Positions 35,012 to 61,109 are shown, counted from the stretch's first letter. The stretch: 64,000 nucleotides of DNA from an uncultured delta proteobacterium (GCA_963803975.1 CAWDOY010000001.1:128001-192000); one strand, 5' to 3'. A program made the numbers and translations. Notes: a model not told the origin generated them from the letters alone.

Positions 35012-36268
35012 TTACCGGCAGGATTCCCGCTCTGCATCAAGGTCATAGTTCTTTTTGAGCCAGTCAAAATCCATGGCATTGGCCTGGGCGCAGAACTCGG
35101 CCGTATCTAACTCATACTCAACACCAAATACCGCCTTCCCGGCCTTAACAAACGGCAGCAGCATATCACATTCATCATACTCAAAGCACTGCTCGTTGAG
35201 CGCCCAGTCAAAATCATCAACCAGCTGCGATACCTGATCGAGATCATTTTTCAGACCAACCGACAGTTCGCGGGCATGGGCGTGCTCTGCCAGCCAACGG
35301 TTAAACTGCAACTGATCATTTGCCGTCAGTGGAAATCCGCTATCATTGGTGTAGGCATCAACATTATCCGGCTCGACGCCGTCGCAACCCTTGCTCACCG
35401 CCATATCGAGCCGTGCATCGATCAGGGGCCCCAGGACATCAATATTTCGTATATCCAGCCACTTTTCATCCGGCCAGCCTTCAAGCGCTTTGCCCTTCAC
35501 TGACGAGGGGTATTTGTCGGCATCCGGCCGCCAGTCTTCCCAGCTACCCGCGGAAAAATAACAAATAACTATGCGCCCGTCATTATGAAGCTGTTCGATG
35601 AGACTTGCGGAGCTGTCAAACAGGTCGATATCATACATGTCCACATCAAATGAGGTGTCAATCGTGCCGGTAAGCTGCCACTGCCAGCTGGTGCCGGGCC
35701 TCGGCTTCCAGACAGTGGCCGGGGGATTCGTGCAGTTATCGACTATGCCGTCGCAGTTATTGTCTATGCCATCATCACACACCTCCTGAGTTCCTGGGTG
35801 CATTGCAGCATTGCTGTCATCGCAGTCGCCGCTTTTTGCCACATATCCAGCGGGTGCTGAACACGCAGGTGTTGACTCTACTGTATTGCCGTAACCGTCA
35901 CCGTCTAGGTCACGGTAAAATGTAATTTTCAAACCCTCATCAATCTGGCCGTCACAGTTATTATCCACTCCATCGCACACTTCCGTTGCTCCGGAATACA
36001 CATTGGGGTCTGCGTCATTACAGTCAACTTCTGGTCCCACAAGCTGACACGTGAGGTAATAGCCTGCTCCCGGCTGCGACAGTGAGCAAACCTTGATGCC
36101 GTCAGAATAACCGTCGCCATCGGCATCCCGGTACCATGGCAGCTGCAATCCGGGACAGCTTTGAGTGCCATCGCACGGGTCCTTGCAGCCCACGGCACAG
36201 CACACCATTGCAGCAGCAAACAGAACATACAAACTACATCTTCCGGTAAGCATGTTTATTTCTTTCAT
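35012..36268 (-). CDS. GH114 endo-alpha-1,4-polygalactosaminidase lipoprotein with MopE-like Cys/Asp repeats
   Basis: Lipobox AVGC; D-DGDGY / DCND-DP / E-CDG-DNNCDG repeats; WQWQL, ICYFSAGSWEDWRPD, DGVEPDN, GLKND, NEQC..Y.EC. Confidence 0.88.
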   Translation of the reverse strand: MKEINMLTGRCSLYVLFAAAMVCCAVGCKDPCDGTQSCPGLQLPWYRDADGDGYSDGIKVCSLSQPGAGYYLTCQLVGPEVDCNDADPNVYSGATEVCDGVDNNCDGQIDEGLKITFYRDLDGDGYGNTVESTPACSAPAGYVAKSGDCDDSNAAMHPGTQEVCDDGIDNNCDGIVDNCTNPPATVWKPRPGTSWQWQLTGTIDTSFDVDMYDIDLFDSSASLIEQLHNDGRIVICYFSAGSWEDWRPDADKYPSSVKGKALEGWPDEKWLDIRNIDVLGPLIDARLDMAVSKGCDGVEPDNVDAYTNDSGFPLTANDQLQFNRWLAEHAHARELSVGLKNDLDQVSQLVDDFDWALNEQCFEYDECDMLLPFVKAGKAVFGVEYELDTAEFCAQANAMDFDWLKKNYDLDAERESCR

Positions 36269-36369: not shown

Positions 36370-37882
36370 TCACTGCTGATTCCGAACACTCCCACTCGTT
36401 ATCATCAGTGCGTCCACTTCGAATTTGTTTTGGTCATAGTCCCACTCTTGACTGCAGATGTCACCGCAGGGATTATACCTTAAGCCGGATACTGGATCTA
36501 TGGCTGAGCTGACCATAGAAGCGGCCCATAAGTCAACTACGACTGCGTAGTAATGCCCTACCTTAAGTGAAGGCTCGAGGATATAGGTCTTCCCCGCAAG
36601 CCCAGTCGAAGTGTGTTCAGTTGGCATTATACCTGATTCGGGCGACAGGGACTTCATTCCACTCATCCTCTTCGCTCGCTATTGTGTTGGGAGCATCCTT
36701 GCCATAGGTCTCGCCGCTGCCCAAGTCAATCACACGCACGCGCCTTTCCCCCTATTGCAGGTGCCAGTATGGGTCTCTCCGGTGTCGATGATGTTGCAAC
36801 CCACTACGGTGCGCGGCACAACATCAGTGCTCGGGTCTGCTTTCACCAGAAAGTACTTTGCAATCATGACTTGAGCATACGTATTCCCATCCAGCAGCCT
36901 GCTGCATTTAAACACTCGGTATGAACTTCCAACCAAATGCTGGGCTGTAATAACAAGTAGGTCGCAATGACCTTCACATGAGGCGTTATTTACAGATGAG
37001 GCAAGTTTATCGAGCATTTCCAACGTCGAAGTAATTCGAATCAAGCTGCTCGTCGGGTTTTACAATCCATTTGTCTGTTCCTGCGGTCCACGTGAGGACT
37101 GGTTTGATCGCATAGCGAGAGAAGTGCGAGATCTGGGCGGATGCGCTCGTGTTTGCCTGGTTAACGCTCGTCTCAACATAGTACGGCATGATACTCAGTA
37201 GGGGTGCCACGGGATCGTTGGGATCATCCTGCGCAGGAGGATCGTAGTACTCGTCAAGGGATACTATTGTCACCTCATCAGGCTCATAGCCCTCAGGAAG
37301 ATCCTCTTTTGCGTAATCGATGGTGAGGGTGGCCGGCTTTGTAAACTGCAGGCCGTTTGGCTCCATTAGGTAGGCTGGCCCTACAAGGTTCTCATCTCCT
37401 GTAACCTCTGATATGGATACCTGGGTATTGTTCTCAAGCGCCCCTGCTGGAATCTCCAGGTGTGCTTTTCCCACTGCGATGGTGCCACCGCTCTGACCGA
37501 TAGTTGCGGTACTCGGTGCAGACACTGATGTGGTGGTGGTTGATGGCCCACCCTCTCCAATGGTTATCGTGATCTCATCAGAACCGACTTTCCCTTTAGA
37601 ATTGGTTGCCCTGACCATTATAGTATGCTCTCCCGGGCTGATTGCATCGGTCTCCATTTCAGTCCCCGTGCCCAGGATGGTGTCTTCGCTGTCTGCATAC
37701 CAAACCACGGATTCACCAGAGAGCTCTCCATCCATCCGGTCTGTCGCCTCACACTTAAAGACAATCGTTGCCCCCTCATCAAACGTGGCACCGTCTTGCG
37801 GCTCTGTGATGGTAACCTTTGGAGCACAGGCGGTACAAATAACCATCAAAACGAATAATAATAACCCAATGGCTTTTTTCAT
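36370..37882 (-). CDS. Surface lipoprotein with Ig-like and ZU5-like domains (3' part split into ORFs 36730-37044 and 36370-36666; true end uncertain)
   Basis: Lipobox CTAC; VTITEP-DG..LG-G..PGEHTI Ig module; Thr-rich linker; IGQSGG..LEIPAGAL..P-GLQFTKPATLTI..ISHFSRY. Confidence 0.65.
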
Positions 37883-38434: not shown

Positions 38435-39539
38435 TTATTTCTTGTCCCGCAGCTTTTTTGCTTCCTCCCACATCTCGCCGAATGCCTTTTCGGTCTTTTC
38501 GCTCATGACCTGCCAGATGGCAACCGTCTTAAAGTAATTGTTATTGCCGACATTAAACAGGACCTTCTCTTCCGGGGTCACGAGGTCACCCACATTGTTG
38601 ACCACCGGGGAGACGCCCTGCTGCTTGACCACTGCAGCCTGGAATGTTGGGGACAGCTGCAGGTTGATCCACTCCTCACACAGTTTTTTCTTCTGTCCTT
38701 TAGCTGCCTGGGTAATGCACCAGTAGTCGATCCAGGCAGAGCCGCCTTCTTTTGCGGTCGCCAGCTTCCAGTGGCCGCCCTTCTGGTTTGCTTTTACTAC
38801 GGCAAATCCCCATGTGGTTGCCAGGGACAATTGAGGAAACTCATCAGCATTGGCTTCCCCGTCCCAGAGGCTTTTTGCGCCCTTTGCCAGTTCATTCAGT
38901 TTAGGTTGAATTTTGTTTCGGTCAAGCTTATCAATGTCAAAAATGTCCGCGTACTTATAGCCCAGCGCAAGGGCTGTTATCCAGATGTTGACTTTATGGA
39001 AGTTGTTATTGATGGTGTACTTGCCGGCATATTCCGGATTCCAGAAGATATTCCAGCTTGCCGGAGCCTCTTTTATAACGTCAGTGTTGTACGCCAGTCC
39101 ATAGGGGCCGCAGTTGTACGGGAGGCCATAGCGTTTATCCCCGCTGGTGAGCGATTTGTCTGCTTTGAAAAACGGCAGCATGTGTTTGGCATTGGGAATA
39201 TTTTTCATGTCAAGGGGAGATCAGCAGTACGCTGCCTTTGGTGAAGCAGTAGAACCGGGGAGTTTTCGCCATATCAGCCGGGGGTGAAATCATGTCCGCG
39301 GTACCGTTCTTGGCAGCGTTATAAAAATCTTCCTGGCCGGTGGCGTACGTGGTTTTTACCTCCACGTCCATTTTATATTTTTCTTTCACCAGGCTCTTAA
39401 AAGCTTCAATAACCGCCTTGTCGGCATAGCCTTCCCAGCAGGTGATGTTTATGGTTTCCGCTGCTGCGAACGTTGTCCCGGGCAGTCCTGCCAGCGCGAG
39501 CACCACGGCTGCCAGCATCATGAGAATTAAATTTTTCAT
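38435..39539 (-). CDS. Orphan PotD/PotF-like extracellular solute-binding protein (frameshift near 39210)
   Basis: Signal peptide ending TFA; INITCWEGYAD; YGLPYNCGPYGLAYNTD..PASWNIFWNPEYAGK; KEGGSAWIDYW; AAGGAGG RBS. Confidence 0.8.
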
Positions 39540-39718: not shown

Positions 39719-40736
39719 TTACCAGCGGCTTGCAATAATGCCGCTGCAAAACGACAGAAGTCCGATACCCAGCAGAACCGGCGAGAGATAAAACCATGCA
39801 GGCTCTGTCGCTTTTGTGTATTCAACGGTCCGCGCATGTTTCACGATGGCTTCCACTACCCGGTCTTCGCACCGTTCTTCACTGACCCGGAAATAGCTGC
39901 CGCCGGTAGCCGCGGCAATCTCCTTCAGCGTATCTTGCTCGATCCGGGTCTTCAGATAGGTACCTTCTTCGTCCGTGTAGTAGTCGACAATAGAGGTGCC
40001 CTCCGCGTCCCGTATGGGAATGAGCACACCCTGTCCCATGCCGGTGCCGATGGTGTATATGAATAATTCCCAGGGCAGCCGCACGCCGGGCCGCCTCAAC
40101 GAGTGCCGACGGATCATCGCTGATGTCCTCGCCGTCCGAAATGAGGATAAGCGCCCGGGCCCGTTTTACGGAAACGTCGGCAAGGAGCGCGACCCCGGTC
40201 ATTATTGCCTGGCCCAGATCGCTTCCGGGTATGGTAATGGTTGTATCATTTAAATGTTTCAGCAGATACTGGCAGTAGCCGTAGTCAGTTGTGGAGGGTA
40301 TTACCTCAACGCCCCTGCTGGCAAACATGAAGACCCCCACACGCTCGCCCCTGAGCGCTGAGAGGATATTCAGCGCGCAGTAGCGGGCGCGGTTGAGCCG
40401 GTTGCGCACGGGAAACAGCTTTTGCCCTTCCGGCGGAATCATTTCATCTTCTGCGAGCATTGATTTTGAGACATCAATGCCGAGCGCGATGTCAATGCCG
40501 CCGCGATTGAAGACGGTCCGCAGGTACTGCAGCTTCGGCTCAGCCAGGCACAGAATCAGTGCTATGAGGCTGATGCTTAAAAACAGGGTTGCTGCCGCAA
40601 AGGAAGCAAGGCTCTTTTTTTTGCCGGCAAACCTGACCAGCCACTGTGATGCAGTCCGATACGAAATCAGGGCGCAGCACACAAACAATGGCAGGATAAG
40701 CAGCAGCCAGATATATTCGGGATTGTCGAGCGCCAT
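39719..40736 (-). CDS. VWA-domain membrane protein, MxaL/BatB-like (frameshift near 40065)
   Basis: P---WLLL BatA-type N-terminus; CLAEP; MIDAS DVSKSM..NRL..PSTTDY..ISDGED; IYTIG-GT; C-terminal TM. Confidence 0.8.
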
Positions 40737-40746
40737 TCTGCACAAC

Positions 40747-40902
40747 CTATCAGGCTGTTGAAAAATACCCATCTGCTTCGTTGCGCTCATTCCTCGTCAT
40801 TGCGACGTACGGTACAGTACGTCGCTTTCTTCAGGATTTCGCGTGCCGTGCGTCTGGATGTTTATGACCAGCCCGGGAGAAAACTACTTTTACAACAACC
40901 CG
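40747..40902. mobile_element. MITE-like element, copy 2, between two operon genes
   Basis: CTATCAGGCTGTTGAAAAA..GACGTAC..GTACGTC..TTTATGACCAGCCCG..TTTTACAACAACCCG; collinear with 3745-3904. Confidence 0.7.
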
Positions 40903-40903
40903 C

Positions 40904-41662
40904 CTATTTTTTGATTTTTGTCTCTACCGGCTCCCCGGGAGCGTAGCCACCCATTTCAGGGATGAGTGTTTCAAGATTTTCTTTCAGCGCCTGGTTTTTT
41001 TCGAGATCGGTTTTGACCGCCTCGATTTTTTTAACGTACTGCTCGCTGTTGAGCAGCTCGAAATTCCAGCGCGGTATATTTTTATCCATGGCAGCTGCCC
41101 CGGTTTTGTCCACCGCGTCAATGGCGGCCTTGTAATCCGAGAGCGCGTCACGTATCACGCCCTGGACTTTGTCGGCGTTTTTTTCTTCATCAAGCATGAC
41201 AAAGGCCTTCAGCAGCCTGGCTGAGGCGGCAACGTTATACAGCTGCCACATAACCTCCGGCCGCAGCTCACCGCCGCCGGTCAGCGTGCTGCTGCAGCGG
41301 TCAAGCATGGCGTCAAGGTGCTCCTTCAGGCGGGCGTTGTAGACAGGGACATCCTGCTCCAGCGCAGCATTATAGCGGCACATCTGGACAGATTTCAGCA
41401 GTGCCAGGGCGCTATGCCACTGCCGCTGCAGGATCCGCAGCTGCACTTCAGGCAGGGTGGCTCCGAGCTTCAGGTATGCGGCCGTTGCCCGGGCGTCATC
41501 GGTTATGGCATCAGCAGCTTCAACCTCCTGCTGAAACGTGCGGCTGTTGCGTTCGCGCTCCCTGAGGCTCTGATAACGGGAGATGTTTATGATGCTGTAC
41601 AGCAGCGACAGTGCGGCCGTGAGCACGGCCCCATACATCATTAGTGTGCGTTTTCCAGTCAT
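40904..41662 (-). CDS. Membrane-anchored helical/TPR-like protein, MxaK/BatC-like
   Basis: N-terminal TM; LYNVA..DYKAAI..RWNFELL resembles MxaK-type 'YN-G..Y-AL..KYNLE'; position between two VWA genes. Confidence 0.5.
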   Translation of the reverse strand: MTGKRTLMMYGAVLTAALSLLYSIINISRYQSLRERERNSRTFQQEVEAADAITDDARATAAYLKLGATLPEVQLRILQRQWHSALALLKSVQMCRYNAALEQDVPVYNARLKEHLDAMLDRCSSTLTGGGELRPEVMWQLYNVAASARLLKAFVMLDEEKNADKVQGVIRDALSDYKAAIDAVDKTGAAAMDKNIPRWNFELLNSEQYVKKIEAVKTDLEKNQALKENLETLIPEMGGYAPGEPVETKIKK

Positions 41663-41668
41663 GGTTGA

Positions 41669-42772
41669 TCAGATTTTTCTGTAATAAGGGTTTATCTGTA
41701 AAAAACAGTATATAAGGAGCGCGCAAAGGGTGCACGCGCCAAGGATCCAGCGCGTATCCTTTTTGCGCTTAACAATTTTTTCCAGGAAGCGGTTCTTTTC
41801 CATGGCATTGATTTCATTGTAAACCTCGGTGATTTTCTGCCTGCTGAAAGTCCGCGGCATGTAGAATATGTGCCCGGCCGTGGATTCTCCCTCAGGCCCT
41901 TCAAGGGCGATACGTATGTCGCTGGTGACGTCTCCCGCCACCACAATAAGATACAGTTTAATCCCGAGCTGCTTGACCAGTGCCACCACGTTGAGAAAAT
42001 TGAGCAGCCCCTTTTTCGCATCTTCCTCACTTTTGCTGGCCTCTATGCGGCCGTCGGTAAACAGCACGATGGCCATTCCCTGCCCGAAATGAATCTTTTT
42101 CAATTTCTCCGGAATGGCTATGGAAGCGCCTGATCTGCCCACCAGCGCGTAGCGCAGGTCGTTTATCTCCTCGTAGGAGGGCTGATCTTCCTCCGGCAGC
42201 AGCATGAAGAATACGCATACGGCAAGCCAGGCAGCGTAGGACGCATTGGTTGCGCCGCCCACGGTCAGCTCCCGGAAAATATAGGAATCAGCCCGCCTGC
42301 TCAACAGCTCAAGCTTTTGCTTCAGAATGCTCTTATCAAAAGCAGGGGGGGCGATTACCCTGGCAAAGCTTGAAAACGCCACAATGCCGATCAGATCATC
42401 CGTGCTGCGCATATCGATAAACGCGCGCGCGCCATCGAGCGCCACATCGCCGAGCGTGATGCGGCCGCCCTCATCGCCGGGCCTTCCCATGGAGCCGGAA
42501 AGATCCTGCACCAGCATGATCCATTTGGATTCAAGAAATGTCCTGTGCCAGTAGCTGGAGTACTGGATGTTGGCTATGGCAAAAACGATGAGCACCATGA
42601 CGAGCCCTGCCAGCATGTCCGCTGCGTACTTTTTTACAGGCCCTGGCTCAAGGCTGCTGCCCAGCATCGCGACCCGCGAAAATCCGGTTTTAACAGACGT
42701 TTTTTTCTGCAGGTACAGCACCGCCGGAACAAGCGCTAACAGGAGCAGTGCCCATGGGTATTGAATGCTCAT
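41669..42772 (-). CDS. VWA-domain membrane protein, MxaC/BatA-like
   Basis: YPWALLLL N-terminus; MIDAS DLSGSM, DLIGIVAFS, GATN, LFTDG; EINAMEK plus C-terminal TM. Confidence 0.8.
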   Translation of the reverse strand: MSIQYPWALLLLALVPAVLYLQKKTSVKTGFSRVAMLGSSLEPGPVKKYAADMLAGLVMVLIVFAIANIQYSSYWHRTFLESKWIMLVQDLSGSMGRPGDEGGRITLGDVALDGARAFIDMRSTDDLIGIVAFSSFARVIAPPAFDKSILKQKLELLSRRADSYIFRELTVGGATNASYAAWLAVCVFFMLLPEEDQPSYEEINDLRYALVGRSGASIAIPEKLKKIHFGQGMAIVLFTDGRIEASKSEEDAKKGLLNFLNVVALVKQLGIKLYLIVVAGDVTSDIRIALEGPEGESTAGHIFYMPRTFSRQKITEVYNEINAMEKNRFLEKIVKRKKDTRWILGACTLCALLIYCFLQINPYYRKI

Positions 42773-42782
42773 AGCGTGTATC

Positions 42783-44380
42783 TTACGCTGCTGCCTGCGA
42801 CCCGGTCAGGTCAAGCAGACGCAGGATTTCCATTCTGATCTGATCGATCTCCGGGCAGCTTTCCTGCTCAAGGGCGACAGCGTTATCAATGGCTGCCAGC
42901 ACCGTCTCCAGGGGGTCAAGATACTGCCCGGGGATATAGTTCCTGACGCTGTCGACAAAGTAGTGCGCGCTGCCGCCGGGCAGTGTACGGCTGTTGCCGT
43001 AGCGAGCCACTACATACTCGCGCAGCAGCGTTCCCGCCTCGTGAGATAGTGCCAGTGGGCGTGCGCGGGGGCAGCCTGCACCAGCACCCGCAGCCGTTCA
43101 GCAAGCAGGTCTTCTCTGGTCCGGAGCGTGAGGAGCCGCTGTTCTTGCCGCTGCCGGAAGAATAGAACAGCTACCCATCCCAGGCACAGGATACACACCA
43201 GCAACCCTCCCGCTGCCTGCCACAGGCTGCTCTGCGCCTGGTAATGCAGGGCGGAAGCCTGATAATCGGGCTGGACAGGCTTTGAGGGCACCAGCAGCCG
43301 GAACTCCTCTTTCACGGCCGGGACCATGGACGCGACCCGGAATGGTATTGGCCGGGTCTCCACAGAGCGAACGGTCTCCCCCGAACAGGCGGGGCAGGTA
43401 TAGCTCACGGTGACCGCCGGAATTACAAATTCGCCGGGGGCGAAGAATTTAATGCGACCCGTGATGATAACCGGGCTTTTGCTGATGACCTTGGTATAAT
43501 CATAGGGGTCAAAGCTGCAGTCAAAGAGCTCCTTTTGAATAGACGCGGGCCGGAGATTGATGTTTGCAATAGAGCTGGGGTCGATGCTCACCCGGTCGGA
43601 AAACAGGATGGTAAAGGTAAACGGGACCGTGTCACCGATGCGCCCGCCACTCATGGCAAGCGCCAGCTGCACTCTGATGGAAGGCTTAAGCTCTACGAGA
43701 TAGGGCCTGGCCCGGAGCACGCTGATATCTTCAGCGAGCAGGTTCAGCGCCTTGAAAAACGGGATTTCGAGAACATTCACCCGGTAGATGTTCTCTTTTT
43801 CATCGTACCCTGCCTGCGCCTGCTTCAGCAGGGCAGCTCTTCGCTCCCGGTCGGCACTTGCCTTCCACTCCAGGTCAAAAATATTGAAAAACGCCCAGGT
43901 TTTATCTTTAAGGATTATGGCCGGGTGAGTATAGAGCACCGCTTCGTCCTGGTTGAGCTGGTTTATGATTTCTTTCAGCTCATCCCGCTTCAGGCCCTCG
44001 CGCAGCCGGAAAAAGCAGGCGTCCTCGGCGATGTTTGCGTCATAAAAATAGTCAATAAGGCTGCTGCGGCTTTTAATGAGCGCTTTTGCTTTCTCCGGGA
44101 TAAACGTGTCGTAGGTGTCCTCAAGTCCGTTGGCCGCACCGGCGTAGCGGGAGTCAAACACGACGGTGAGCCACGTCATGCTGATGTCAGGCATTATTTT
44201 AGTGCTGCCATCATAAAACCAGATGTCGTCGAAGTTGAATGGGGCAGGAGCTTTTTTCTCCAGGGCGTTCGCGCTGAAGCGCGTCACTGCGGCGGCAGGA
44301 GCATGGACTGCCGAAATGCCGAGCGCCACGAGGAGCGTGATACAATATTTTTTTGTTAAGCAGTGTTTCCTACTGTGCAT
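42783..44380 (-). CDS. Exported protein with C-terminal TM, MxaA/BatD-like (frameshift near 43040)
   Basis: Signal peptide; RIGDTV..FFAPGEFVIPAVTVSY..V-S BatD-like beta modules; late TM. The 5' extension to 44521 runs through a repeat. Confidence 0.5.
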
Positions 44381-44425
44381 AGAACTATAGCCGAAGATTA
44401 TTTGTAATTTGTCTGTCTCACCAGT

Positions 44426-44554
44426 ACCCCCTCTGACTCCCCCTTGGCCCATCGGCCGTGAGCAACTCGGCCTTGAACTCGTTGCCGAAAGGCTCAGGGC
44501 CGAACGGCAGGGGGAGAACATTGCCCCTTCTTACCAAGGAGGGGCAGGGGAGGT
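44426..44554. repeat. Nested REP-like palindromic element inside the operon
   Basis: CTCCCCCT..GGGGGAG and CCCCTTCTT-ACC-AAGGAGGGG hairpins enclosing CCGTGAGC..GCTCAGGGCCGAACGG. Confidence 0.55.
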
Positions 44555-44616
44555 CGATAAATGCACTATAATACTTCCTGAGAGATAAATTCTCATATCT
44601 ATATATGTGTAAGAAT

Positions 44617-45494
44617 CTAATAGGTTAACGGAGCCCGTTGCATGAACTCATGTAACTTGTTGGTACGGTCATCTTCAGGCGTTATCGTCACCAGGGGAAT
44701 ACCGGCCCGTAAGAGTCGGTTGCCCAGCGTCTCCCGCCCCTGCGCCATGGTTTCATTATAAGCCTTCCATTTGCTCACATCAAGCAGCCTGGTTGCGCCG
44801 GTTTCATAATCATAGAGCGGCAGCAGGCCCCGGGAGTACGGGGGCAGCGCCACCTCGCTTTCTTCAAGCACCTGCACTGCCTTCACATCGTGTTTGTTGG
44901 TGCCGTGGACCGTGCGGTGGAAGCTGTAGCTGAAGTCAAGCGGATACATGAAGTCCGACAGAATAAACGTCAGGCTTTCGGGGACTTCAGTGACCAGCTT
45001 GGTCAGGGCGATCTGCAGGCTGGTGGAGCGGCACGCCACTGGTTCCGCGCGGGCAATGGCCGCAAGAATCTCCATGAAATGAGACCGGCCCATGCGCGGC
45101 GGAATATAGCTGACGATGTCATCGGCGAACAGGATCAGCCCGCAGCCGTTGTTGCTCATGATGGCGCTGTAGGCAAGCGACACCGCGATGTGCGCCTGGA
45201 GCAAGCTCCTTGCGGCCGAAGCTCACTGATGCTGCTGATGTCGTAGAGCAGCATGACGTTGAAATAGCTTTCGGCAAGGTACTCCCGCACGTAATATTTC
45301 CCGGTCTTTGCTTTTGCCTTCCAGTCGATGTTTTTAAACGGGTCGGTCGGCTCAAGCTCCCGCAGCGACCAGAATTCATAGCCCAGGCCTTTGAAGGTGC
45401 TTTCCCAGTCACCGGGAAACGGCGCGTTCACCCGGTGATTGATAAATATATCAAGCAGCTCTTTTTTTGACAGCAGGCTCTGTTCTGTTTTCAT
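44617..45494 (-). CDS. DUF58 domain protein, MxaS-like (frameshift near 45220)
   Basis: KGLGYEFWSLRE..DPFKNIDWKA.AKTG..VREY; FILSDF; directly follows moxR. Confidence 0.85.
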
Positions 45495-45502
45495 AGTGCC
45501 CG

Positions 45503-46526
45503 TCAGTACGGCCGTATGGTCTGCAGTATCTCCTGCACCAGCATGTCGGAGGTTATCTGCTGGGAAAGGGCACTGCTGTTGAGCAGGATGCGGTGCCTGA
45601 GGACGTGAACTGCACAGGTGGCCACATCATCAAAGGTGACAAAATCCCGCTGCCGACAGAAGGCATAGGCCTTTGCCAGCGCCAGCAGCGACTCTGTCGC
45701 ACGCGGCGAGGCCCCGAGCCGGATATACTGGTGCACCTCGCTGGCTGCAGCCTGCTCTTTATAGGTTTCATTCGGCCGGGTGGCAATGCAGATATTTAAA
45801 ATGTAGTTCATGACCTTCCGGCCCACCCGCACCCGGTCATGGATGAGCTGCTGGATGGCAATAATATCCTCAAGGCTGAAAACCTTCTGCACCGCTGCTT
45901 TCAGCTGGTCGAAATTGGAATTTTTTCTCTGCATGCAGCTCAAACTCCTCATCCTTGTGCGGATACCCGACATCATATTTTACCATGAACCGGTCAACCT
46001 GGGATTCCGCCAGGGGATAGGTGCCGATCTGCTCAATCGGGTTCTGGGTCGCCAGCACCATGAAGGGATTGGGTATCGCATAGCTCAGGCATTCGATGGT
46101 TACTTCCTTTTCCTGCATCGCCTGCAGCAGCGCGGACTGAACCTTCGGCGATGCGCGGTTTATTTCGTCGGCGAGAAAAATGTTGCAGAAAACGGGGCCG
46201 AAGTAAAAATCAAATTTCCTGTCCTTCTCATTCCACACCATGGTGCCGGTTATGTCGCTGGGCATCTTGTCCGGGGTGAACTGGAAGCGTTTGAAATTGC
46301 CGCTGATCACTTTTGCAAAGGTTTCAACAACAAGGCTCTTTGCCAGGCCCGGGACCCCCTCCAGCAGTATATGGCCCTTTGCCAGAAGCGCATACAGTAT
46401 GAGGTTGATCATCTCCTCCTGGCCGATCACAACTTTTGCGATCTCAGCTTTTACCTGCTGGATCTGTTGTGCATACCGGGTGAACTGCTCTTTCGTGCCG
46501 TCACCCGCTGTCACCTGATTCTGCAT
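45503..46526 (-). CDS. moxR: MoxR-family AAA+ ATPase, MxaR-like (frameshift near 45915)
   Basis: HILLEGVPGLAKS, RFQFTPD, LADEINRA, ATQNPIEQIGTYPL.E.Q.DRF, GASPRA, VLRHRI. Confidence 0.92.
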
Positions 46527-46578
46527 ATGAAAGGTCCCCGTTGTTACGGCATCAGCATACCAGCCATGCTACATATAT

Positions 46579-47610
46579 TCAAACCGCTTGCGGTACTTTA
46601 TAATCAAGATAGAGAAAAAACGGGCCGCCCAGCAGCGACGTGACAATCCCGATCTTCAGGTCAACCTTAACGATAAGCCGGACAAACAGATCGGCATAGA
46701 TAATAAAGACTGCCGCCAGCAGCCCGGCAAAGAAAACGAGCTTCCGGTTGTCCGGGCCGATCAGGCTGCGCATAATGTGCGGGGCAATCAGCCCGACAAA
46801 ACCGATAACTCCCGATACGGCAATCGCGCCCCCGGTCTCGATGGATGAAAATAAGAGGAGCGCATTGCGTGCCTGCTTGATATTGACGCCCAGATTGGAC
46901 GCTGTTTCTTCTCCGAGCATGAGGATATTCAAATCCCTGACATAGAACAGGGTCCCTGCCAGCGCTACGACCGTGGTGGGGAATACTATGCTCACATGCT
47001 CCCAGGAGCGGTTGTTCAGATCGCCCATGAGCCAGGTCACGATCACCCGGCCCACATCAAACTCCCTGGTGCTCAGGGTGATGACAAAGGAGGTCAGTGC
47101 GCCGAATACTAAATTGAGCGCTATCCCCGCGAGCAGCAGCGTTGATACCGATGTCTGCCCCCGGGAGGTCGCGATGGCAAAGACCATGACCAGCGTCAAC
47201 ACGGCAAACAGTATGGCGGCAAGGGGCAGGGCAAACAGCGAATGGGCTGCCAGGCCGGCATAGATCGCCAGCACCGCGCCCAGCGCCGCCCCTGAGTCAA
47301 TACCCATAACCCCCGGGCTTGCCATGGGGTTCTTGAAGATTCCCTGCATGATGGTGCCGGCGCCGCCGAGAGAAAATCCCACCAGAAGCGCAACCAGGAA
47401 GCGGGGCAGCCTGCCGTCCCAGACGATGGCGGCTTCAACGTCGCTGACGCTTCCTGTATAGAACCCGAGTTTTGCAAGAATAATTTTAAATACATCTATA
47501 ATGGCAATGGGCCACTCCCCTGACGTCAGGGTAAAAAAACCCCCCAGTACAATGAGCCCTGACAATGCGCCGGCCAGCAGCGCTTCTGAAGCCTTAGGGC
47601 TGTTGCGCAT
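46579..47610 (-). CDS. BtuC/FecCD-family ABC permease
   Basis: RLPR, QGIFKNPMASP, WLMGDL, LGEETASNLGV, GVIGFVGLIAPH, GGPFFL. Confidence 0.9.
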   Translation of the reverse strand: MRNSPKASEALLAGALSGLIVLGGFFTLTSGEWPIAIIDVFKIILAKLGFYTGSVSDVEAAIVWDGRLPRFLVALLVGFSLGGAGTIMQGIFKNPMASPGVMGIDSGAALGAVLAIYAGLAAHSLFALPLAAILFAVLTLVMVFAIATSRGQTSVSTLLLAGIALNLVFGALTSFVITLSTREFDVGRVIVTWLMGDLNNRSWEHVSIVFPTTVVALAGTLFYVRDLNILMLGEETASNLGVNIKQARNALLLFSSIETGGAIAVSGVIGFVGLIAPHIMRSLIGPDNRKLVFFAGLLAAVFIIYADLFVRLIVKVDLKIGIVTSLLGGPFFLYLDYKVPQAV

Positions 47611-48643
47611 ACAAAACTCCGGCAAGCAGATCGGCGCTTAAGAGCATGAACTGGGAATCAACCCGCAGATACACCCCGGGAACATAATACACTTTTCCCT
47701 GTTTATGGCCTGCGCAAAGGAGAGAACCTTATTGGACATCAGCAGCTCTCTCAGCTTGCTTCCCCGGGGAACGATAATAACATCGGGGTTCCATTTAAGC
47801 AGTGTTTCATTATCAATCTGCGACCAGGATTTAATGCCCTGCTCAGCCCCGACATTAACGGCGCCGATGATGCTGCAGATGGAATTAAAGTTTGATGACC
47901 GGCCCGGGATATACCCGCCTTCATCGTAATAGAGCACACGAACCGGCTTGTTGCCACCGGGGATGTCTGACTTCAGTGCCGCGATTTTTGCATCGATTAG
48001 ATTAACCAGTGCCTGCGCATTGGCTCTCTTCACCGACAATTTTTCCGATGAGCAGGATCTGCTCTTTAATGGACTCAATTGATACCAAAATAGCCGAGGT
48101 CAAAACAGGGGATCTTCGCCTGTCTGAGCTTTTCTTTAAAATCAGCGCCGGAATAAAAAACGGTAAAGACCAGGTCCGGCTGAAAGCCGATAACCAGCTC
48201 TGTCTGTTTTGATTTAAAAATCGGGCCCCGCTGCCGTACTTCATCTGCAATAAAGCTGAATTCAGGATCAGCGGAAAATTCATTGAAGGCTACCAGCCGC
48301 TCACGCGGGCAGATTGCCCATAATATCTCTGCAACGCCCACCGCGTGGGGAATTATGCGCACGGGCTGCTTCGCCAGGGTGAACGCTTTTTCTTCCTGCG
48401 GAAGGCATCAGTCTTAAAATCATACACCTTGAAGGTATAGGGTATGGTGCGCGGCCAGCTGTTGGTTTGCGCTTCACCCCTGACCAGGCTCAGCGCTTTT
48501 TTTAAATCATTCATGGGCAGGGGAGGGGAACCGTCCGGACTGCGCGCTGCCCCGCCGCGGGAGAGCAGCAGGCAGCAGAGACAGCAGGCCAGGTTACTGA
48601 GAAGCTTCGCGCACGCTGCAGACCACCGACGACTGTTATGCAT
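47594..48643 (-). CDS. BtuF/FecB-family cobalamin/iron substrate-binding protein (about 3 frameshifts)
   Basis: Joined ORFs 48353-48670, 48075-48362 and 47638-48078: RII....AEILWAI, E.VIGFQPDLV, ETLLKWNPDVII. Confidence 0.7.
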
Positions 48644-49400
48644 AAAAATCGAGAAAAGTGGCGCTGTCATTTTTGATATTCCCGTACCTGCACATCAAAT
48701 ACCTGTTTAATATTCTCCGGGGAGAACGCATCCTGCGGCGAGCCGGTATAAAATATTCTTCCCGCGATGAATAATTGATATCGTATCGCAGAATTTTCTG
48801 CGCAAGGTTCAGATCGTGCATGGTTACCAGGATGGTTTTGCCCTGCGCCCGCAGTTCGAACAGAATGTTCATAATTGCCAGCGTGTGCTTGATATCAAGC
48901 TCGGCGGTCGGCTCATCCAGCAGTATCAGGGATGCTTCCGTTGCCAGGGCGCGGGCGATTATCGCCAGCTGGCCTTCTCCGCCGGACAGCTCATTGATGA
49001 TTCGGTCCTTTAGTGCATACATAGCGGTCTGCTGCAATGCCCGCTCGATTATTTCCCGGTCCTTCTGCTGCACCCCTTCAAAGCGTCCCAGATGCGGGTT
49101 GCGCCCCATGGAAACAATATCAAACACCGAGATGGGAAAACTGACCGCGGTGTTTTGCGGCACCAGCGTAACCAGCCTGCTCAGCTCTTTTCTCGGTATG
49201 GTGCGGTAGTTTTTGCCCTCTATCAGGATGGTGCCGGACTGCGGCTCCCATATCCGGCAGACATTTTTCAGCAGGGTTGATTTGCCGGAGCCGTTCGGGC
49301 CGATGATGCCGTGAATTTTGCAGGGTTCAAAATGGACTGAAACCCCGTCAAGGATTTTTTTATCTTCAATTGAAAAATGGATATCCTGTATTGTGAGCAT
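48636..49400 (-). CDS. BtuD/FecE-family ABC ATP-binding protein (3' frameshifts)
   Basis: GPNGSGKSTLL, VSMGRNPH, ELSGGE, LLDEPT..LD, MHDLNLA. Confidence 0.9.
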   Translation of the reverse strand: MLTIQDIHFSIEDKKILDGVSVHFEPCKIHGIIGPNGSGKSTLLKNVCRIWEPQSGTILIEGKNYRTIPRKELSRLVTLVPQNTAVSFPISVFDIVSMGRNPHLGRFEGVQQKDREIIERALQQTAMYALKDRIINELSGGEGQLAIIARALATEASLILLDEPTAELDIKHTLAIMNILFELRAQGKTILVTMHDLNLAQKILRYDINYSSREEYFIPARRRMRSPRRILNRYLMCRYGNIKNDSATFLDFYA

Positions 49401-49412
49401 ACGGCAACAGTC

Positions 49413-50196
49413 CTATGAGCACAGCCTGAATTTGTATGCAACCGGCAGAATAAATTTTGCTACCACGACACAGAAGAAACCAAAATATACGGATATGCTT
49501 ATTGCCGCTGCTGTCAGGTCCGGGGAGAATTCAGCGGTTATGCCCAGTGCCGCCCAGATGAAAATCTGCCCCAGCAGCAGCTGAAAGTTCTGGGCCAGGG
49601 TATATATTACCCAGAAGTTCTGCGAGAGCTTGAAAATTTCGCCCCTGCGGATTTTTATCTCAATGATTTTAAACCAGGTCCGGCCCTCAACAATCTGGGA
49701 CGATCCGTCGCACACATGGTGCAGCAGATACAGTACTACCAGCAGGTGGGGAGCAAAAGAGAGGCTCTGAAAGAAGTATTTAAAAACCGGCGGAAAGCAC
49801 AGCAGCAGGCAGACTGCCCCCAGGGACTGGCCGATGGCGATTGCCCACCTGCGCCCTGATTAAGCGGGGAATCTGCAGGCGCGGGTCCTGCGCGACCTCC
49901 AGCTGATCTATGAATTCCGATGTGTAGGTGCTCGAAATCATGGTTATCCCCGGATAGGCGTATTTCACCAGCACCCCCAGGATTGCAGCAACTTTCAGCT
50001 CCTGCTCGGCCATTAAAAACATGGTATAGAGAATCACGCCGTCAAGGATGTTTTTCCCGATAGTATAGCAGATATTGCCCGCCTCGCCATAGCGATAAAA
50101 GGGCACTGAGATAAGGGCTGAAATATATAATTTTATTTTTTGCGGTAAAGCCGGGGGTGTGTAGCCGGGGTATGTTGTTGTCTGGTCTTTTTCCAT
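49413..50196 (-). CDS. Hypothetical ~6-TM membrane protein (start uncertain; frameshift near 49845)
   Basis: ORFs 49780-50280 and 49413-49715 join into one hydrophobic multi-pass protein. Confidence 0.5.
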
Positions 50197-50321: not shown

Positions 50322-52609
50322 TTAACTTGCCTGCATTATTTCTTTGAGCAGTTTTACCGTCATTTTAGCAGCCTCTTCAGGCTTTGTCGCCTGGTTGGAG
50401 ATGCCGCACACGACTTTCACGATATTGTGGTCGCACTTCTTTTCTGCCCAGACTGTTGCCTTGGGCGCTGCGATATACACGGAGAATGCATTCTGGCCGG
50501 TGCCCGGCCGTTCGCCAATTATATGAATAACAGCTTTGTTCTTATTCGGGTCTGATTTTCCGAACAGAATATCGCCCGCCATGTATACCCGGCCCGCACG
50601 CGGCCGCTGGTACAACAATGTTCTGCTCCCCAACGGTCAGCCTGCATCTTTGAGCTCTTTTCTCACCTCGTAATATATGGCATGAGATGTCCCTGAGCCA
50701 TGATTGAATTGGCGTTTAACCCGTCAGAGATAACAATCTGCACATCAGGATCTTTCCCTGCCCATGAATCCCGCAGCTTTTCAAGGGTTGCCACTGACTG
50801 CTCGTTCAGTTGTTCACCGGTAGTGGGACGGACAATGTAGTTTTCGCGGTCCTTCGACAGGGTAGCAAGCTGAACTGCATTGGGAATGGTCTTTATAAAC
50901 TCCGGGGTAAACTCCGCCCAGATAGCTTTTTTGGCATCAGCGTAGAGTTCACGTATCCTCTTGTCCAGTCCCGGATTCAGATCCCAGATATTTTTACCAT
51001 ATCCGGAGGCCAGAGGTACTTTGTTTCCGGTCTCAAGCCACGTATTATAAATAGCATCAAACTTCTGTTTGCCTTCAGCATATATTTCCTGTTCAGAGCG
51101 CTTGTCGCCTTTAGCTGCGCAGAACTGATAATATACCCAGATGGGATCTCCGAAGTGCTTGGTGGGTTTGCCGTTCTTGTCAATAACCTGGATGCGCTTG
51201 AAGAATTCCCACATGGCATCATTTACCTTGAAGCCGAATTTGTTGCGCAGGCGCACATGGTCCTGGTATGAGGTAGTCAGGTAGCTCAGCATCGGGTCAT
51301 TCCTGGTAGGAAGAGCCATGAGATAGGCCGGGTTTGCCGGCATAATCTGATCCTGGCACCACTGCAAGGTCATCAAGGCTTACTGACATGTGCAGGGTGG
51401 AGCAGATATCAAGGCCGGAAGTGAGCCCCTGCAGTTTGCCCATTAATATATCTTCAAGGCAGCAGCGCACCAGCTGTTCCTTGGTTCTGAACACCTCCGG
51501 GCCGATGAAACCGGCAACATCATTAAAATGAGTATAGGCGCCCTGCGGCTGGACTTCAGCAAGGGTCTGTTTCAGCCCGCGGGCAAACCCGTACTTGCGG
51601 GATTCAAGCACCACCATGTCCACGCCTTCAGCAGCGCCGTTGGTGAAATCAGAGCCCTGGCCGGTCTCGTAATACAGCCCGTATCGTCTGATCCTTGCGG
51701 GCTTTTGCATGATTGACCATCTTTTCAACGGTCACGTCAAACACCTTGTTTGCCGCGTCAGTTCCTGCCAGGCTCTGGAAGAAAAAATCAACCAGTTCCG
51801 GCTTCTCTTTAAAAAGTTCCCCCTGCACGTCAACATGGGATAACACGCACCAGGGAACAATCCCCTTTAATTTGAACGCATCGACAACATCCTTAAGGGC
51901 TGCTTCTACTTTTGCAGTTTGTTCTTTTGTCCCGTCCACCGGGTTAGTCCCGAGCACTAAATCGCCTACCGCGTAGGAGAATCCATTAAGTGTCTGCCAG
52001 ATAATTTCCTCGGGATCATCAGTGGGGGAATTGGGCTGAATGCGGGCGCTCAGATAGCCTTTGGCCCCGATCTTGGTGCCGGGCAGCGGATTGAAGATTT
52101 TCTTGTCTACCGCAATCAGCTCCTGATTGCTCATGAGTTTGGGCATACAGCCAACCACCTCGCTGTTCATGCCGTACATGACTGCCTTGATTTCAGCTTC
52201 AGGCTTGGTCAGGAGATAGGTTTTCATCTTCCCCATGGTCCAGTCCTTAATTTTTTCGTACTGGGCCGAATCAGTTGCTTGGGCGATAAATTTGTAAAGA
52301 TTGTCATTAAGCAGGGGGTGCTCCGTGATATCCTTGATTTTGGTATTAGCTAAAAGCTTACGGGCATTTTCCCTGCTGGTATTATCGTCGGCAGCATACG
52401 CCGATTGCCTGGTCACCCTCTTTAAAGGCATTTGCCGCACCGATTACCTGCTGATACAGTGTCTGGTCAAAAGAACCCTTAACCCGTTCAATATATTTGA
52501 AGACATCTTCACCGGGTTTGACGTCCTTAATGGCGATGGCACTGCTGTACGTGCTGAAAGCAAAAACCCCGAGGGCAATCATCGCTGTGATCGCAATAAA
52601 TCGTTTCAT
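50322..52609 (-). CDS. eutB: Fused ethanolamine ammonia-lyase EutB-EutC with N-terminal Sec-type signal peptide (4-5 frameshifts)
   Basis: EutB motifs AANAFKEGD, SARIQPN, GDLVLGTNP, CVLSHV, FQSLAG, YYETGQGS, GFIGPE, LEDILMGKL, GLDIC, DPMLSYLTT. EutC motifs DRENYIVRP, DVQIVISDGL, IGERPG. ORF 50663-51376 spans the B/C junction with no stop. Confidence 0.9.
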
Positions 52610-52789: not shown

Positions 52790-53615
52790 TCAGAAAGCCA
52801 CTTTAAGAGTAACGCCGCCATAGACCCAGCTGGAATTTGTATTTGAGTCGGGGCCGCGTGTTATAGCATTGAAACTGCTCTGTCTGATATTGGTCTGCGC
52901 TTTATTGCTCATCGGACATGAGTAGTTAATTGACGGCACGATCGTTACAAAGCTGTTGAGCGGGATGTTGTATGCCGCCCAGATGTTGGCGTCGTGCATG
53001 GCCTCGTAGTCGTAACTCGTGCTGTTGATGCTCATGTAGCTGATCCATCCGCCCACATCCAGAGACTGTTCTCCGCAGTAACCGAAGATTTCTCGTTTGC
53101 CCGTGGAAAAAGAGTGGGATACCCCTAAATTAATATACCAGCGGTCTCCGCCCAGGGCTATTTCCCGGTATATGCTGAGGGTCGGCTTGAGCAGCACATC
53201 AAGGCCCAGGGTCGTAAACAGTTCCTGGCTGGCTCTGGTGATACGTGGAGGGATCGATATCGTAATAGATGTAGCCGAAGGTGTAGTTCAGTTTTTTCCA
53301 GCTGTTGCTGTAGGTGAGTATCCAGTCTGTTTCCCACCATTTATTCTGGGAATCTTCCCCCGGGTTCCCCTTATATGCGGTATCAAGATCGCCCCACATA
53401 TTCATGCTGAACCCCTTGTAGGAAACGGTAATGGAGGGGAACATCACCAGGCTGTCCTTGCTCAGTTCATACCCTCTCCACACATACTTTGAATAGAATG
53501 TCCAGGAGAGGTTGCAGGTAGGCCGCTCCTCCTTGTCCTCCTGGGCAAGCACCGCGGTGCTGAACGAAAACACCATGAGGCCAAGCATAATTGTTAGAAG
53601 AATTTTTTTACCCAT
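52790..53615 (-). CDS. Outer-membrane beta-barrel protein, TorF-like putative porin (frameshift near 53225)
   Basis: Signal peptide; SKYVWRGYEL, ETDWILTY, GYIYY; alternating aromatic strands; C-terminal YGGVTLKVAF. Confidence 0.7.
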
Positions 53616-56037: not shown

Positions 56038-56433
56038 ATGATTACAAAGCTGCTGACCGGCGCTATTATCATATGCCTTTTTTTCAGCTGCTGCCGTTTT
56101 ACCAGACCCGCTAAAATCAACACAGGCCCGGAGTTCATAACCTTTGAAGCTGACCTCGGGCCTGTTCTTTTTTACCACCGCAAACACCAGCGCTCTCTGA
56201 AACAGAACTGCGTCCAGTGCCACCATAAGGGCAGCGAAAAGACCCCTGCCTGCCGGAGCTGCCATAAAAAGAAGCAAGATACTGCTGAAGAAGACCCGAT
56301 CTGCTTTTTTGACGTCACGATGAACCTGTGCCGCGGGTGTCATCAGCGGGAGCGCGACCAGGAGACCTCAAAAAAAGCCCCCATCCACTGCAACGAGTGC
56401 CACGACACGAAAAAAATAAAGTGGTCAAAGTAA
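56038..56433 (+). CDS. Tetrahaem cytochrome c3-family protein
   Basis: GPVLFYHRKH; four CxxCH motifs (CVQCH, CRSCH, CRGCH, CNECH); N-terminal export signal. Confidence 0.85.
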   Translation: MITKLLTGAIIICLFFSCCRFTRPAKINTGPEFITFEADLGPVLFYHRKHQRSLKQNCVQCHHKGSEKTPACRSCHKKKQDTAEEDPICFFDVTMNLCRGCHQRERDQETSKKAPIHCNECHDTKKIKWSK

Positions 56434-59764: not shown

Positions 59765-59914
59765 CGTATGCGATAGTCTGTACAAACCAACGCAAAAGTT
59801 CCGACCCTGAACTCTCTCGCCTGGTGCCTTTTCTTCCTTCGGGTCACGGGTCACGTGCCACGAGTCGCGTATTTCAATATCTATTGACACCGTCAAACTA
59901 ATGGAGTATTAATT

Positions 59915-60085
59915 TTAACATAAAGGTACCTGCTATGGTTTAAAAGGGAAGATGGTGAGAATCCATCATGGTCCCGCCGCTGTGATCGGGGACGAAATCC
60001 ACGTAATGCCACTGTCCTGAGATGAATCGGGATGGGAAGGTTTGGAGAGTAGGATGATCCGAAAGTCAGAAGACCTGCCTTTATG
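59915..60085 (+). promoter_or_regulatory. Cobalamin (AdoCbl) riboswitch
   Basis: AGGT..TAAAAGGGAA-GATGGTGAGAATCCATC-..CCCGCCGCTGTGA..GCCACTG..GGGAAGG..AAGTCAGAAGACCTGCC B12-box; TTGACA at 59884; upstream of cobU. Confidence 0.95.
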
Positions 60086-60138
60086 ATAGCAGTCGCGGAA
60101 CTCGATCCTTGCATAAAAGGGTGAAGTAAACTGGGTGC

Positions 60139-60897: not shown

Positions 60898-61109
60898 CTC
60901 GTGGCACGTGATTCGTGACTCGAGGAAACGAAACAAAGAGAAGTGCGGATTGCGGAACTGAAAAAGGCAACAGGCAATAGTGCACAAAGTAATTGCGGAT
61001 TTGAGATTGCAGCGTGCAGATTTAAGTAAGGTACAGAAAATAAAGCTGATAGCTGACAGCTGTCAACTGATAGCTTACTTGAACAACTCAAAACTTAAAA
61101 CTAAAAACT

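Follow-up and report, generated by a model that had tools for sequence, protein, structure and literature searches.

What does a MoxR-type ATPase with VWA partners do when its genes stand in the order of those that serve methanol dehydrogenase, in a genome that yields no such enzyme? The question is raised by a stretch of 64,000 nucleotides from an uncultured delta proteobacterium (GCA_963803975.1 CAWDOY010000001.1:128001-192000), here called the window, to which all coordinates refer unless another locus is named. On its minus strand, positions 39719-46526 hold six genes that encode, in order of transcription, a MoxR-type ATPase, a DUF58 protein, a protein that we call X, a first VWA protein (VWA1), a helical protein (Hel) and a second VWA protein (VWA2). 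An earlier reading of the sequence alone likened this module to the methylotroph mxaRSACKL genes, and proposed that its client is the exported product of the neighbouring gene, the ethanolamine ammonia-lyase EutBC. The best explanation of the six genes is that they form the downstream part of a 12-13-gene operon built around a periplasmic ethanolamine ammonia-lyase, and the link between the module and the exported enzyme is strongly supported by its genomic context.

In the textbook picture, ethanolamine ammonia-lyase resides in the cytoplasm or inside a microcompartment, and needs a reactivase driven by ATP. An exported one is unexpected, and a periplasmic site would be another way to keep acetaldehyde from the cytoplasm. 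MoxR-proper/Bat modules, for their part, are among the most widespread bacterial gene clusters without an agreed function: a fixed neighbour that can be assayed offers a direct handle on them.

The six genes

The features of the module are the following, where ORF stands for open reading frame and MIDAS for metal ion-dependent adhesion site.

45503..46532, minus strand: MoxR-type AAA+ ATPase, about 340 amino acids if intact; two frames (ORFs 45870-46526 and 45503-45976)
44617..45494, minus strand: DUF58 protein, VWA-like, no membrane segment; two frames (45156-45494 and 44617-45204)
42786..44521, minus strand: protein X, ORF of 503 amino acids, probable start 44380; tail in another frame (42786-43037)
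41669..42772, minus strand: VWA1, BatA-like membrane VWA protein, intact; MIDAS motif DLSGS
40904..41662, minus strand: Hel, helical protein of 252 amino acids, intact; contains IPRWNFE
39719..40790, minus strand: VWA2, BatB-like membrane VWA protein; MIDAS motif DVSKS; two frames (39879-40790 and 39719-40117)

The order and strand announced by the sequence-only reading are real, and both of its VWA motifs, DLSGS and DVSKS, were found. The MIDAS pattern DxSxS is invariant among orthologues, in 15/15 for VWA1, 14/14 for VWA2 and 16/16 for DUF58, a conservation by which we judge the module to be under selection.

Family assignments vary in strength along the row. The two pieces of MoxR match the Pfam families AAA_3 (197.6 bits) and AAA_lid_2 (69.4 bits), and an intact orthologue scores 195.3 and 54.5 bits. 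The DUF58 gene directly follows moxR in the window and in the related loci; its pieces score 32.8 and 87.3 bits against the DUF58 family in Pfam, and hydropathy detects no hydrophobic segment in an intact orthologue. VWA1 matches VWA_2 with 27.4 bits and the BatA N-terminal domain with 22.5 bits, under the cut-off of 25.9, and reaches 37.7 bits with the Leptospira BatA model, whose cut-off is 380. VWA2 matches VWA_2 with 36.2 bits and the Leptospira BatB model with 62.5 bits, for a cut-off of 350. The VWA_2 scores reach or exceed the cut-off of that family. When orthologues are included, these two Leptospira models give 38-81 bits on the VWA proteins of the module, with cut-offs of 350-380.

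Two labels of the sequence-only reading have to be revised. Its title described Hel as a tetratricopeptide repeat (TPR) protein: Hel has neither a TPR nor any other Pfam match at E<=0.01, and matches no NCBIfam family. Protein X was called exported and BatD-like. It does carry a signal peptide, but its likeness to BatD is weak: it matches no Pfam or NCBIfam family, PF13584 (BatD) included, hhalign aligns its family to the genome's own BatD-like gene with a probability of 34% over 39 columns, and a lead in the Atlas links X to a BatD cluster with a score of 0.82, under the level that is meaningful by itself.

An operon around an ethanolamine ammonia-lyase

In locus L018, from a relative assembled as a single contig, twelve tightly packed genes, abutting or overlapping, run on one strand: a putative outer-membrane protein, a 763-amino-acid EutB-EutC fusion, a membrane protein of 263 amino acids (Mem263), the ATPase, binding protein and permease of an ATP-binding cassette (ABC) transporter, and the six module genes. 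The row in the window is identical, and is followed by an orphan PotD-like binding protein:

52790..53615, minus strand: putative outer-membrane protein, at the start of the operon; signal peptide; two frames; orthologue ends in ...YNF
50334..52609, minus strand: EutB-EutC fusion, ethanolamine ammonia-lyase of about 760 amino acids; Sec-type signal peptide; five frame pieces
49419..50196, minus strand: Mem263, multi-helix membrane protein; two frames; invariant HHxCDGS...EGRxWFKI
46579..49400, minus strand: ABC transporter of corrinoid/haem/siderophore type; permease 46579-47625 intact, binding protein 47597-48758 in three frames, ATPase 48636-49400 intact
38435..39539, minus strand: orphan PotD-like periplasmic binding protein, just after VWA2; SBP_bac_6, 135.7 bits; two frames

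The export of the neighbouring EutBC, claimed by the sequence-only reading, is borne out by a Sec-type signal peptide at the head of the fused protein. The pieces in the window have EutB and EutC matches in Pfam, and an intact orthologue scores 631 bits with the EutB model (cut-off 554) and, for its EutC part, 96 bits (cut-off 230). Its active-site stretches align with those of 3abo_A and 2qez_A, and by its EutB score and this alignment the fused lyase looks active. The transporter matches FecCD (301 bits), Peripla_BP_2 (55.5 bits) and ABC_tran (105 bits) in Pfam. Its best NCBIfam models are those of corrinoid transport, BtuD with 232 bits (cut-off 537) and BtuC with 264 bits (cut-off 461), both scores being below cut-off; the binding protein is nearest to the PGF-CTERM SBP model, and reaches 23.7 bits with the BtuF model. 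The outer-membrane protein matches no family, bar a weak match to PagP. The PotD-like gene, which comes without a cognate permease, also adjoins the operon in L019, L021, L022, L023 and L054; its product may bind ethanolamine in the periplasm.

By annotation, a matching gene row was printed in 2012 for Pelobacter carbinolicus (Pcar_0457-0467; Aklujkar et al. 2012, PMC3543383, Table S2): a fused eutBC-2 (Pcar_0467, “an unusual fusion”), a multi-pass membrane protein, a three-gene “metal ABC transporter”, an AAA_3 ATPase, a DUF58 VWFA protein, a hypothetical protein, a VWFA protein, a hypothetical protein and a VWFA protein, then aorA-2. The likeness is one of annotations only, not of sequences. 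The row lies inside a 43-gene cluster with cobalamin biosynthesis genes and was read as cobalamin uptake; P. carbinolicus grows on ethanolamine, and a PotD-like gene precedes each of its eutBC (PMC3543383). The sections of that paper that were examined are silent on any signal peptide of EutBC and on any role as chaperone, and the literature searched, which leaves subscription journals outside its coverage, holds nothing on an exported ethanolamine ammonia-lyase or on its link with MoxR. The “new client class” of the sequence-only reading thus needs a qualifier, since its gene row has been in print, under another interpretation, since 2012.

How constant is the association? Of 41 relatives, 8 have protein X, in each case together with EutB, and in six loci from relatives the genes from permease to VWA2 keep their order. 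A scan of species genomes with a profile of X yields 16 loci, some of which duplicate the DNA of the loci from relatives; they come from Thermodesulfobacteriota, Geobacteraceae, Desulfuromonadales, Desulfobacterales and one bin labelled Acidobacteria. EutBC lies upstream of the module in 10/10 of the loci that have sufficient contig, the other 6 being cut by contig ends. The full row EutBC, Mem263, ABC ATPase, periplasmic binding protein, FecCD permease, MoxR, DUF58, X, VWA1, Hel, VWA2 is present in 9/10; the contig of L038 ends inside VWA1, and L045 has no match to Mem263, the ABC ATPase, FecCD, Hel or VWA2.

Among 401 sampled genomes of the phylum, all with a completeness of 90% or more, 11 have X and 32 have EutB; of the latter, 19 have the fused type and 13 the canonical unfused type. 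Fused EutB is present in 10 of the 11 holders of X, and the eleventh, G284, is a fragmented assembly of 720 contigs in which no EutB was found; none of the 13 genomes with unfused EutB has X. One family, of four genomes, has a short X, reduced to an Ig-like domain, the membrane helix and the tail. In one locus of this kind (G150, L052 9350-11749, plus strand) an extra ORF of 373 amino acids stands between DUF58 and the short X, still in a EutBC operon.

Second copies of EutBC, linked to aldehyde:ferredoxin oxidoreductase (AOR), occur in genomes that have the module elsewhere: the single-contig relative and the genome studied here. The copy of the latter, on contig C48 (L028 7288-9541, minus strand), is 71-78% identical to the relative's operon copy; it is frame-broken, has no start codon before its signal-like segment, and lies beside genes for AOR and an Ech/Mbh-type hydrogenase, the AOR pairing being found in the relative as well. 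One module may serve two lyases, as the layout in P. carbinolicus also suggests.

The module follows the Sec-exported form

Fused EutBC proteins come with two kinds of export signal. We collected the 120 closest EutBC homologue clusters (67-100% identity, about 760 amino acids), 112 of which have at least 15 residues before the conserved KPGEDVF. By a hydropathy measure, 110 of these 112 have a Sec-like N-terminus, that is, Lys/Arg followed by a hydrophobic core and a small-x-small site; so does the EutBC of the window, where this segment lies in a further frame. Fused EutBCs at a greater distance (51-66% identity) carry twin-arginine (Tat) signals of the SRRxF type. A metagenome scan, with a profile covering both kinds of EutBC and automatic classes corrected by eye, gave 80 loci: 41 Tat, 32 Sec, 4 with no signal, and 3 cut or unclear.

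The presence of the module separates the two kinds. Among metagenome loci with at least 5 kb downstream of EutBC, MoxR follows in 11/14 of Sec type, 0/13 of Tat type and 0/2 with no signal; for Mem263, with at least 1 kb downstream, the counts are 19/23, 0/30 and 0/3. Five genomes with Tat-type EutBC have no X. The Tat-type genes lie in variable contexts and have no conserved neighbour, at most 3/22 loci sharing one once shadow ORFs are set aside.

The Sec pathway moves unfolded chains, and the Tat pathway exports folded, cofactor-loaded proteins. Consequently, the Sec form of EutBC would have to get its adenosylcobalamin in the periplasm, and it is the only form that would need loading outside. 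The contrast amounts to a natural experiment. It could be reproduced in a heterologous host, as has been done for methanol dehydrogenase, and cultured carriers exist: P. carbinolicus and a Geomonas strain.

Two other functions, a lipoprotein signal and a microcompartment-targeting peptide, were considered for the N-terminus of EutBC and rejected: Cys is missing ahead of the presumed site of cleavage in many members, and the segment is a plain hydrophobic core after Lys/Arg. The Tat-type fused EutBCs form a large family (L048, L055, L056, L061 and 41 metagenome loci among L068-L147), of which the L048 member has a lipobox-like LAGC.

A possible loading machine

The predicted anatomy of the module proteins suggests how they might be placed. 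The model of X, built from 15 sequences (pLDDT, the predicted local distance difference test score, 78), shows from N- to C-terminus a signal peptide, an alpha/beta domain at about 50-230, an Ig-like domain at about 235-350, one long membrane helix and a helical tail of about 130 residues; orthologues have 522-562 amino acids. The Ig-like sandwich carries an invariant CxxC, and the tail is probably cytoplasmic, to judge by the positively charged side of the helix. A Foldseek search of this model against the PDB returned only generic Ig-like matches, with query TM-scores no higher than 0.18. In Hel, a single membrane helix at the N-terminus is followed by an all-helical domain, with an invariant IPRWNxE and a C-terminal GGYxPGEP in an alignment of 14 sequences. 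Mem263 has a mean column identity of 68% and an invariant His-His-x-Cys-Asp stretch that would suit a corrinoid or metal ligand, which is a guess; its model has a pLDDT of 50, and its Atlas leads, at 0.94, go only to half-size MOP/MATE-like clusters.

It is natural to conjecture that the module matures the Sec-exported B12 enzyme in the periplasm, a claim that we rate nearly as apt to be right as wrong. The sequence-only reading had named the neighbouring EutBC as client: operon linkage, signal peptide and co-occurrence all agree with it, while physical contact between module and enzyme, the side on which the VWA domains lie and the insertion of the cofactor are the parts that we infer. In the scheme that we have in mind, EutBC would cross the membrane unfolded and without adenosylcobalamin. 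MoxR and DUF58 would sit on the cytoplasmic face and spend ATP; X would span the membrane, with its helical tail inside and its alpha/beta and Ig-like domains outside; and the BatA/BatB-like VWA1 and VWA2 would present their MIDAS-bearing VWA domains to the periplasm, as a BatA-like Borrelia protein does (PMC5700661). X, Hel and the two VWA proteins would then carry the work across the membrane to apo-EutBC, which would be remodelled so that the corrinoid can be inserted, while the transporter and Mem263 would handle the corrinoid; the operon would also supply the outer-membrane protein.

A precedent is MxaRSACKL, which puts Ca2+ into methanol dehydrogenase in the periplasm: a study of 2025 found that in E. 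coli none of mxaR, S, A, C, K and L can be spared for this insertion (PMC12276312). In its full form, in which the six proteins, together with a corrinoid transporter and Mem263, make up a trans-envelope machine that loads corrinoid onto a Sec-exported periplasmic adenosylcobalamin enzyme in bacteria of anoxic sediments, the proposal is more tentative, and rather less likely to be right than wrong. If true, B12 insertion in the periplasm would have its first known system, and MoxR/VWA chaperones their first client with an organic cofactor.

Several observations weigh against the proposal. Four of the six module genes are out of frame in the window, and the module may not work in this strain. 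The ABC system is of importer type, which leaves the route of adenosylcobalamin to the periplasm unexplained. X, Hel and Mem263 fall outside the families of known function, and the charge pattern around the membrane segments of the VWA proteins, by hydropathy and charge count, is ambiguous as to the side that their domains face. The association also has exceptions: the Sec-type operon of G306 stops after the permease, with no VWA1 orthologue found there or in the congeneric G237 and G372 (90-97% complete), and 3/14 of the long Sec-type metagenome loci are without the module, namely L104, which ends at an ABC remnant, L137, an AOR-linked paralogue, and L139, which is divergent. Finally, kinship among genomes and sequences makes all the counts above overstate the association, and they are given as counts, not as a test. 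Complex prediction with the EutB and EutC parts and the periplasmic portion of X gave a score of 0.00, which speaks neither for nor against binding.

Reactivation or uptake

If the enzyme is indeed served by the module, the service could be repair rather than loading. The main rival is that the module replaces the reactivase EutA and, with cytoplasmic ATP whose effect is relayed through the membrane, pulls damaged cobalamin from inactivated periplasmic EutBC, while the ABC importer returns the spent corrinoid for re-adenosylation. This fits the general lack of EutA: a true one (455 bits) is present in 1 of the 41 relatives (G031), where other matches stay at about 20-37 bits in frames of about 260-460 amino acids; none was found in five further module-bearing genomes, and P. 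carbinolicus has no eutA (PMC3543383). EutA and the module would serve the same enzyme and use ATP; EutA, however, has an unrelated fold and is cytoplasmic, from where it could not reach a periplasmic enzyme, and an importer-type transporter suits recycling better than supply. However, the five genomes with Tat-type EutBC are also without EutA, the same inactivation is to be expected there, and they have no module. The split between Sec and Tat forms is thus left unexplained by reactivation, which we consider unlikely.

We hold equally doubtful the possibility that the module does not act on EutBC at all, and is an accessory of corrinoid or metal uptake that works with the adjacent transporter, in line with the 2012 interpretation of the P. 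carbinolicus row. The moxR gene always lies directly 3' of the permease gene, the nearest models of the transporter are the corrinoid BtuC and BtuD, and a cobalamin riboswitch and cobU are about 7 kb from the operon. However, cells with Tat-type or unfused EutBC also need cytoplasmic B12, and they have no module beside the lyase; G306, in turn, keeps the transporter without the module. No Btu-type system is known to need MoxR/VWA partners. Uptake, like reactivation, leaves the split between Sec and Tat forms unexplained.

Frame changes in the window

Could the operon be dead in this genome? Aligning the proteins of intact orthologues to the window reveals frame changes in four of the six module genes: at 45912-45967 in MoxR, 45210-45234 in DUF58, 43037-43043 in X and 40060-40068 in VWA2. 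The neighbours are split as well, EutBC in five pieces, the binding-protein gene in three, and Mem263, the outer-membrane gene and the PotD-like gene in two each, for a total of at least 13 frame changes within 38.4-53.6 kb; the genes at 30-38 kb are whole. The G+C content of the region is also raised, with 0.54-0.57 at 40-48 kb against 0.45-0.50 in the flanks. That the operon is a decaying pseudogene array from which nothing is made would account for such a density of breaks (at least 13 in 15 kb) and for a G+C content above that of the flanks.

The nature of the breaks speaks against this. All the defects seen in the broken operon are frame changes, with no nonsense-only break and no large deletion, and the pieces are 64-99% identical to intact orthologues, bar a few short overlapping matches at frame boundaries. 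The stretch occurs, in whole or in part, in 20 public runs from 14 studies, labelled as freshwater or sediment metagenomes. In near-identical Logan contigs from 4/4 runs (four studies), one base is omitted at 45934, which is the MoxR break and, among the indels listed, the one break of the module; the listed indels also include dense one-nucleotide differences at 48533-48759 in the binding-protein gene, and the comparison comprises 60 further indels beyond those listed. In G001, a genome of the same genus, MoxR, DUF58 and VWA2 are each in a single frame. The same assembly has frame breaks elsewhere too, in the BatA gene of contig C45 and the second EutBC gene of C48, which points to assembly quality.

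On this comparison the breaks read as assembly errors or, less likely, as strain-specific decay, and the species evidently has an intact operon. The broken stretch as a whole, 38.4-53.6 kb, either has a consensus of locally poor quality or is an island of foreign DNA. That nothing is made from it is improbable, a little more so than the two readings of the preceding section. Programmed frameshifting was also considered and rejected, since relatives do not share the breaks.

Mxa order, Bat sequences

The sequence-only reading held that the module matches mxaRSACKL better than the Bacteroides bat genes. For gene order this is correct: in a Paracoccus denitrificans record with mxaF (L047), the genes that follow have the domains AAA_3, DUF58, none, VWA, none, VWA. 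The sequences do not bear this out. By pairwise identities, the MoxR of the module has 27% identity to Paracoccus MxaR and 53% to the Bat-type MoxR of this genome. For VWA2 the figures are 21% with MxaC (E 6e-4) and 30% with the genome's own BatA/BatB; the DUF58 protein has no Mxa match at 1e-3 and 34-42% identity within the genome's own Bat-order cluster; VWA1 has no match to the Mxa proteins at 1e-3. The hhalign probabilities are 1.8% for X and MxaA and 0.8% for Hel and MxaK, with a limited sensitivity, the Mxa side being a single sequence. The likeness to Mxa is thus, as far as these comparisons reach, one of gene order and not of sequence, and a very distant kinship is conceivable, as the Mxa side is a single sequence.

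The two systems share the order, the pattern of domains and, presumably, a periplasmic cofactor enzyme as client. They differ in that X is twice the length of MxaA, with an extra N-terminal domain and a cytoplasmic tail, and in that the presumed cofactor is a corrinoid and not Ca2+, in a genome without a PQQ (pyrroloquinoline quinone) enzyme. The absence of mxaF and xoxF from the window, which the sequence-only reading had remarked, extends to the whole genome, 98% complete, where the best match to a methanol/ethanol PQQ dehydrogenase reaches 46 bits for a cut-off of 480. PqqC has no match in the genome either, in a search whose control matched nowhere. That the module is a true Mxa-type system inserting Ca2+ into a PQQ dehydrogenase, for which gene order alone speaks, can be set aside almost entirely, in view of the score of that dehydrogenase and of the dissimilarity of X and Hel to MxaA and MxaK.

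The nearest sequences are those of Bat/MoxR-proper operons, as known from Bacteroides, Leptospira and Borrelia, which share with the module an AAA_3 MoxR, a DUF58 protein and BatA/BatB-like membrane VWA proteins with MIDAS motifs. In the module, however, the VWA genes are separated by Hel, there are no TPR proteins, X does not belong to the Pfam BatD family, family scores are far weaker, and the gene context does not vary but is fixed. The function of Bat/MoxR-proper modules is unsettled.

Could the module then be a generic envelope module of Bat/MoxR-proper type, with no specific client, which lies beside eutBC by chance? Its sequences are nearer to Bat than to Mxa, with the 53% identity of MoxR and with both VWA proteins matching the BatA and BatB models. 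However, a canonical cluster in Bat order is already present on contig C45 of the genome (L029 3142-8194); it contains MoxR, DUF58, a weak BatD-like protein, BatA in two frames, BatB and FG-GAP repeat proteins. The Pfam scores there are much stronger, as for DUF58, with 277.7 bits against 132.7 for the X-type module. Moreover, the X-type module is found only in the EutBC operon, in every checkable locus. Of the picture that the sequence-only reading had set against its own proposal, generic Bat proteins in variable contexts, the kinship with Bat is seen, yet the context is fixed to EutBC. We consider a chance neighbour quite improbable.

Other MoxR systems offer a more general parallel to the maturation of EutBC. 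NorQ/NorD, CbbQ/CbbO and CobS/CobT are pairs of a MoxR-class ATPase and a MIDAS-bearing VWA partner that act on metal-cofactor enzymes. Those pairs are soluble and cytoplasmic, whereas here there are six proteins, four of them membrane-bound.

Genes outside the operon

A cobalamin riboswitch (118 bits) lies at 59907-60096 on the plus strand, followed at 60367-62942, on the same strand, by cobU (188.5 bits), a gene of the radical-SAM kind and an ORF that has an O-methyltransferase dimerisation domain; together they may form a set for cobamide salvage or for the lower ligand of cobamides. No cobalamin riboswitch was found immediately ahead of the operon, either in the window or among six related loci, and one occurs elsewhere in L035.

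Just downstream of the operon are a GH114 glycoside hydrolase with MopE-type metal-binding motifs (35012-36268, minus strand) and an exported Big_7/ZU5-like protein (37007-37882, minus strand). A class III (c3-type) cytochrome gene at 56038-56433, on the plus strand, accords with a sulfate- or metal-reducing lineage.

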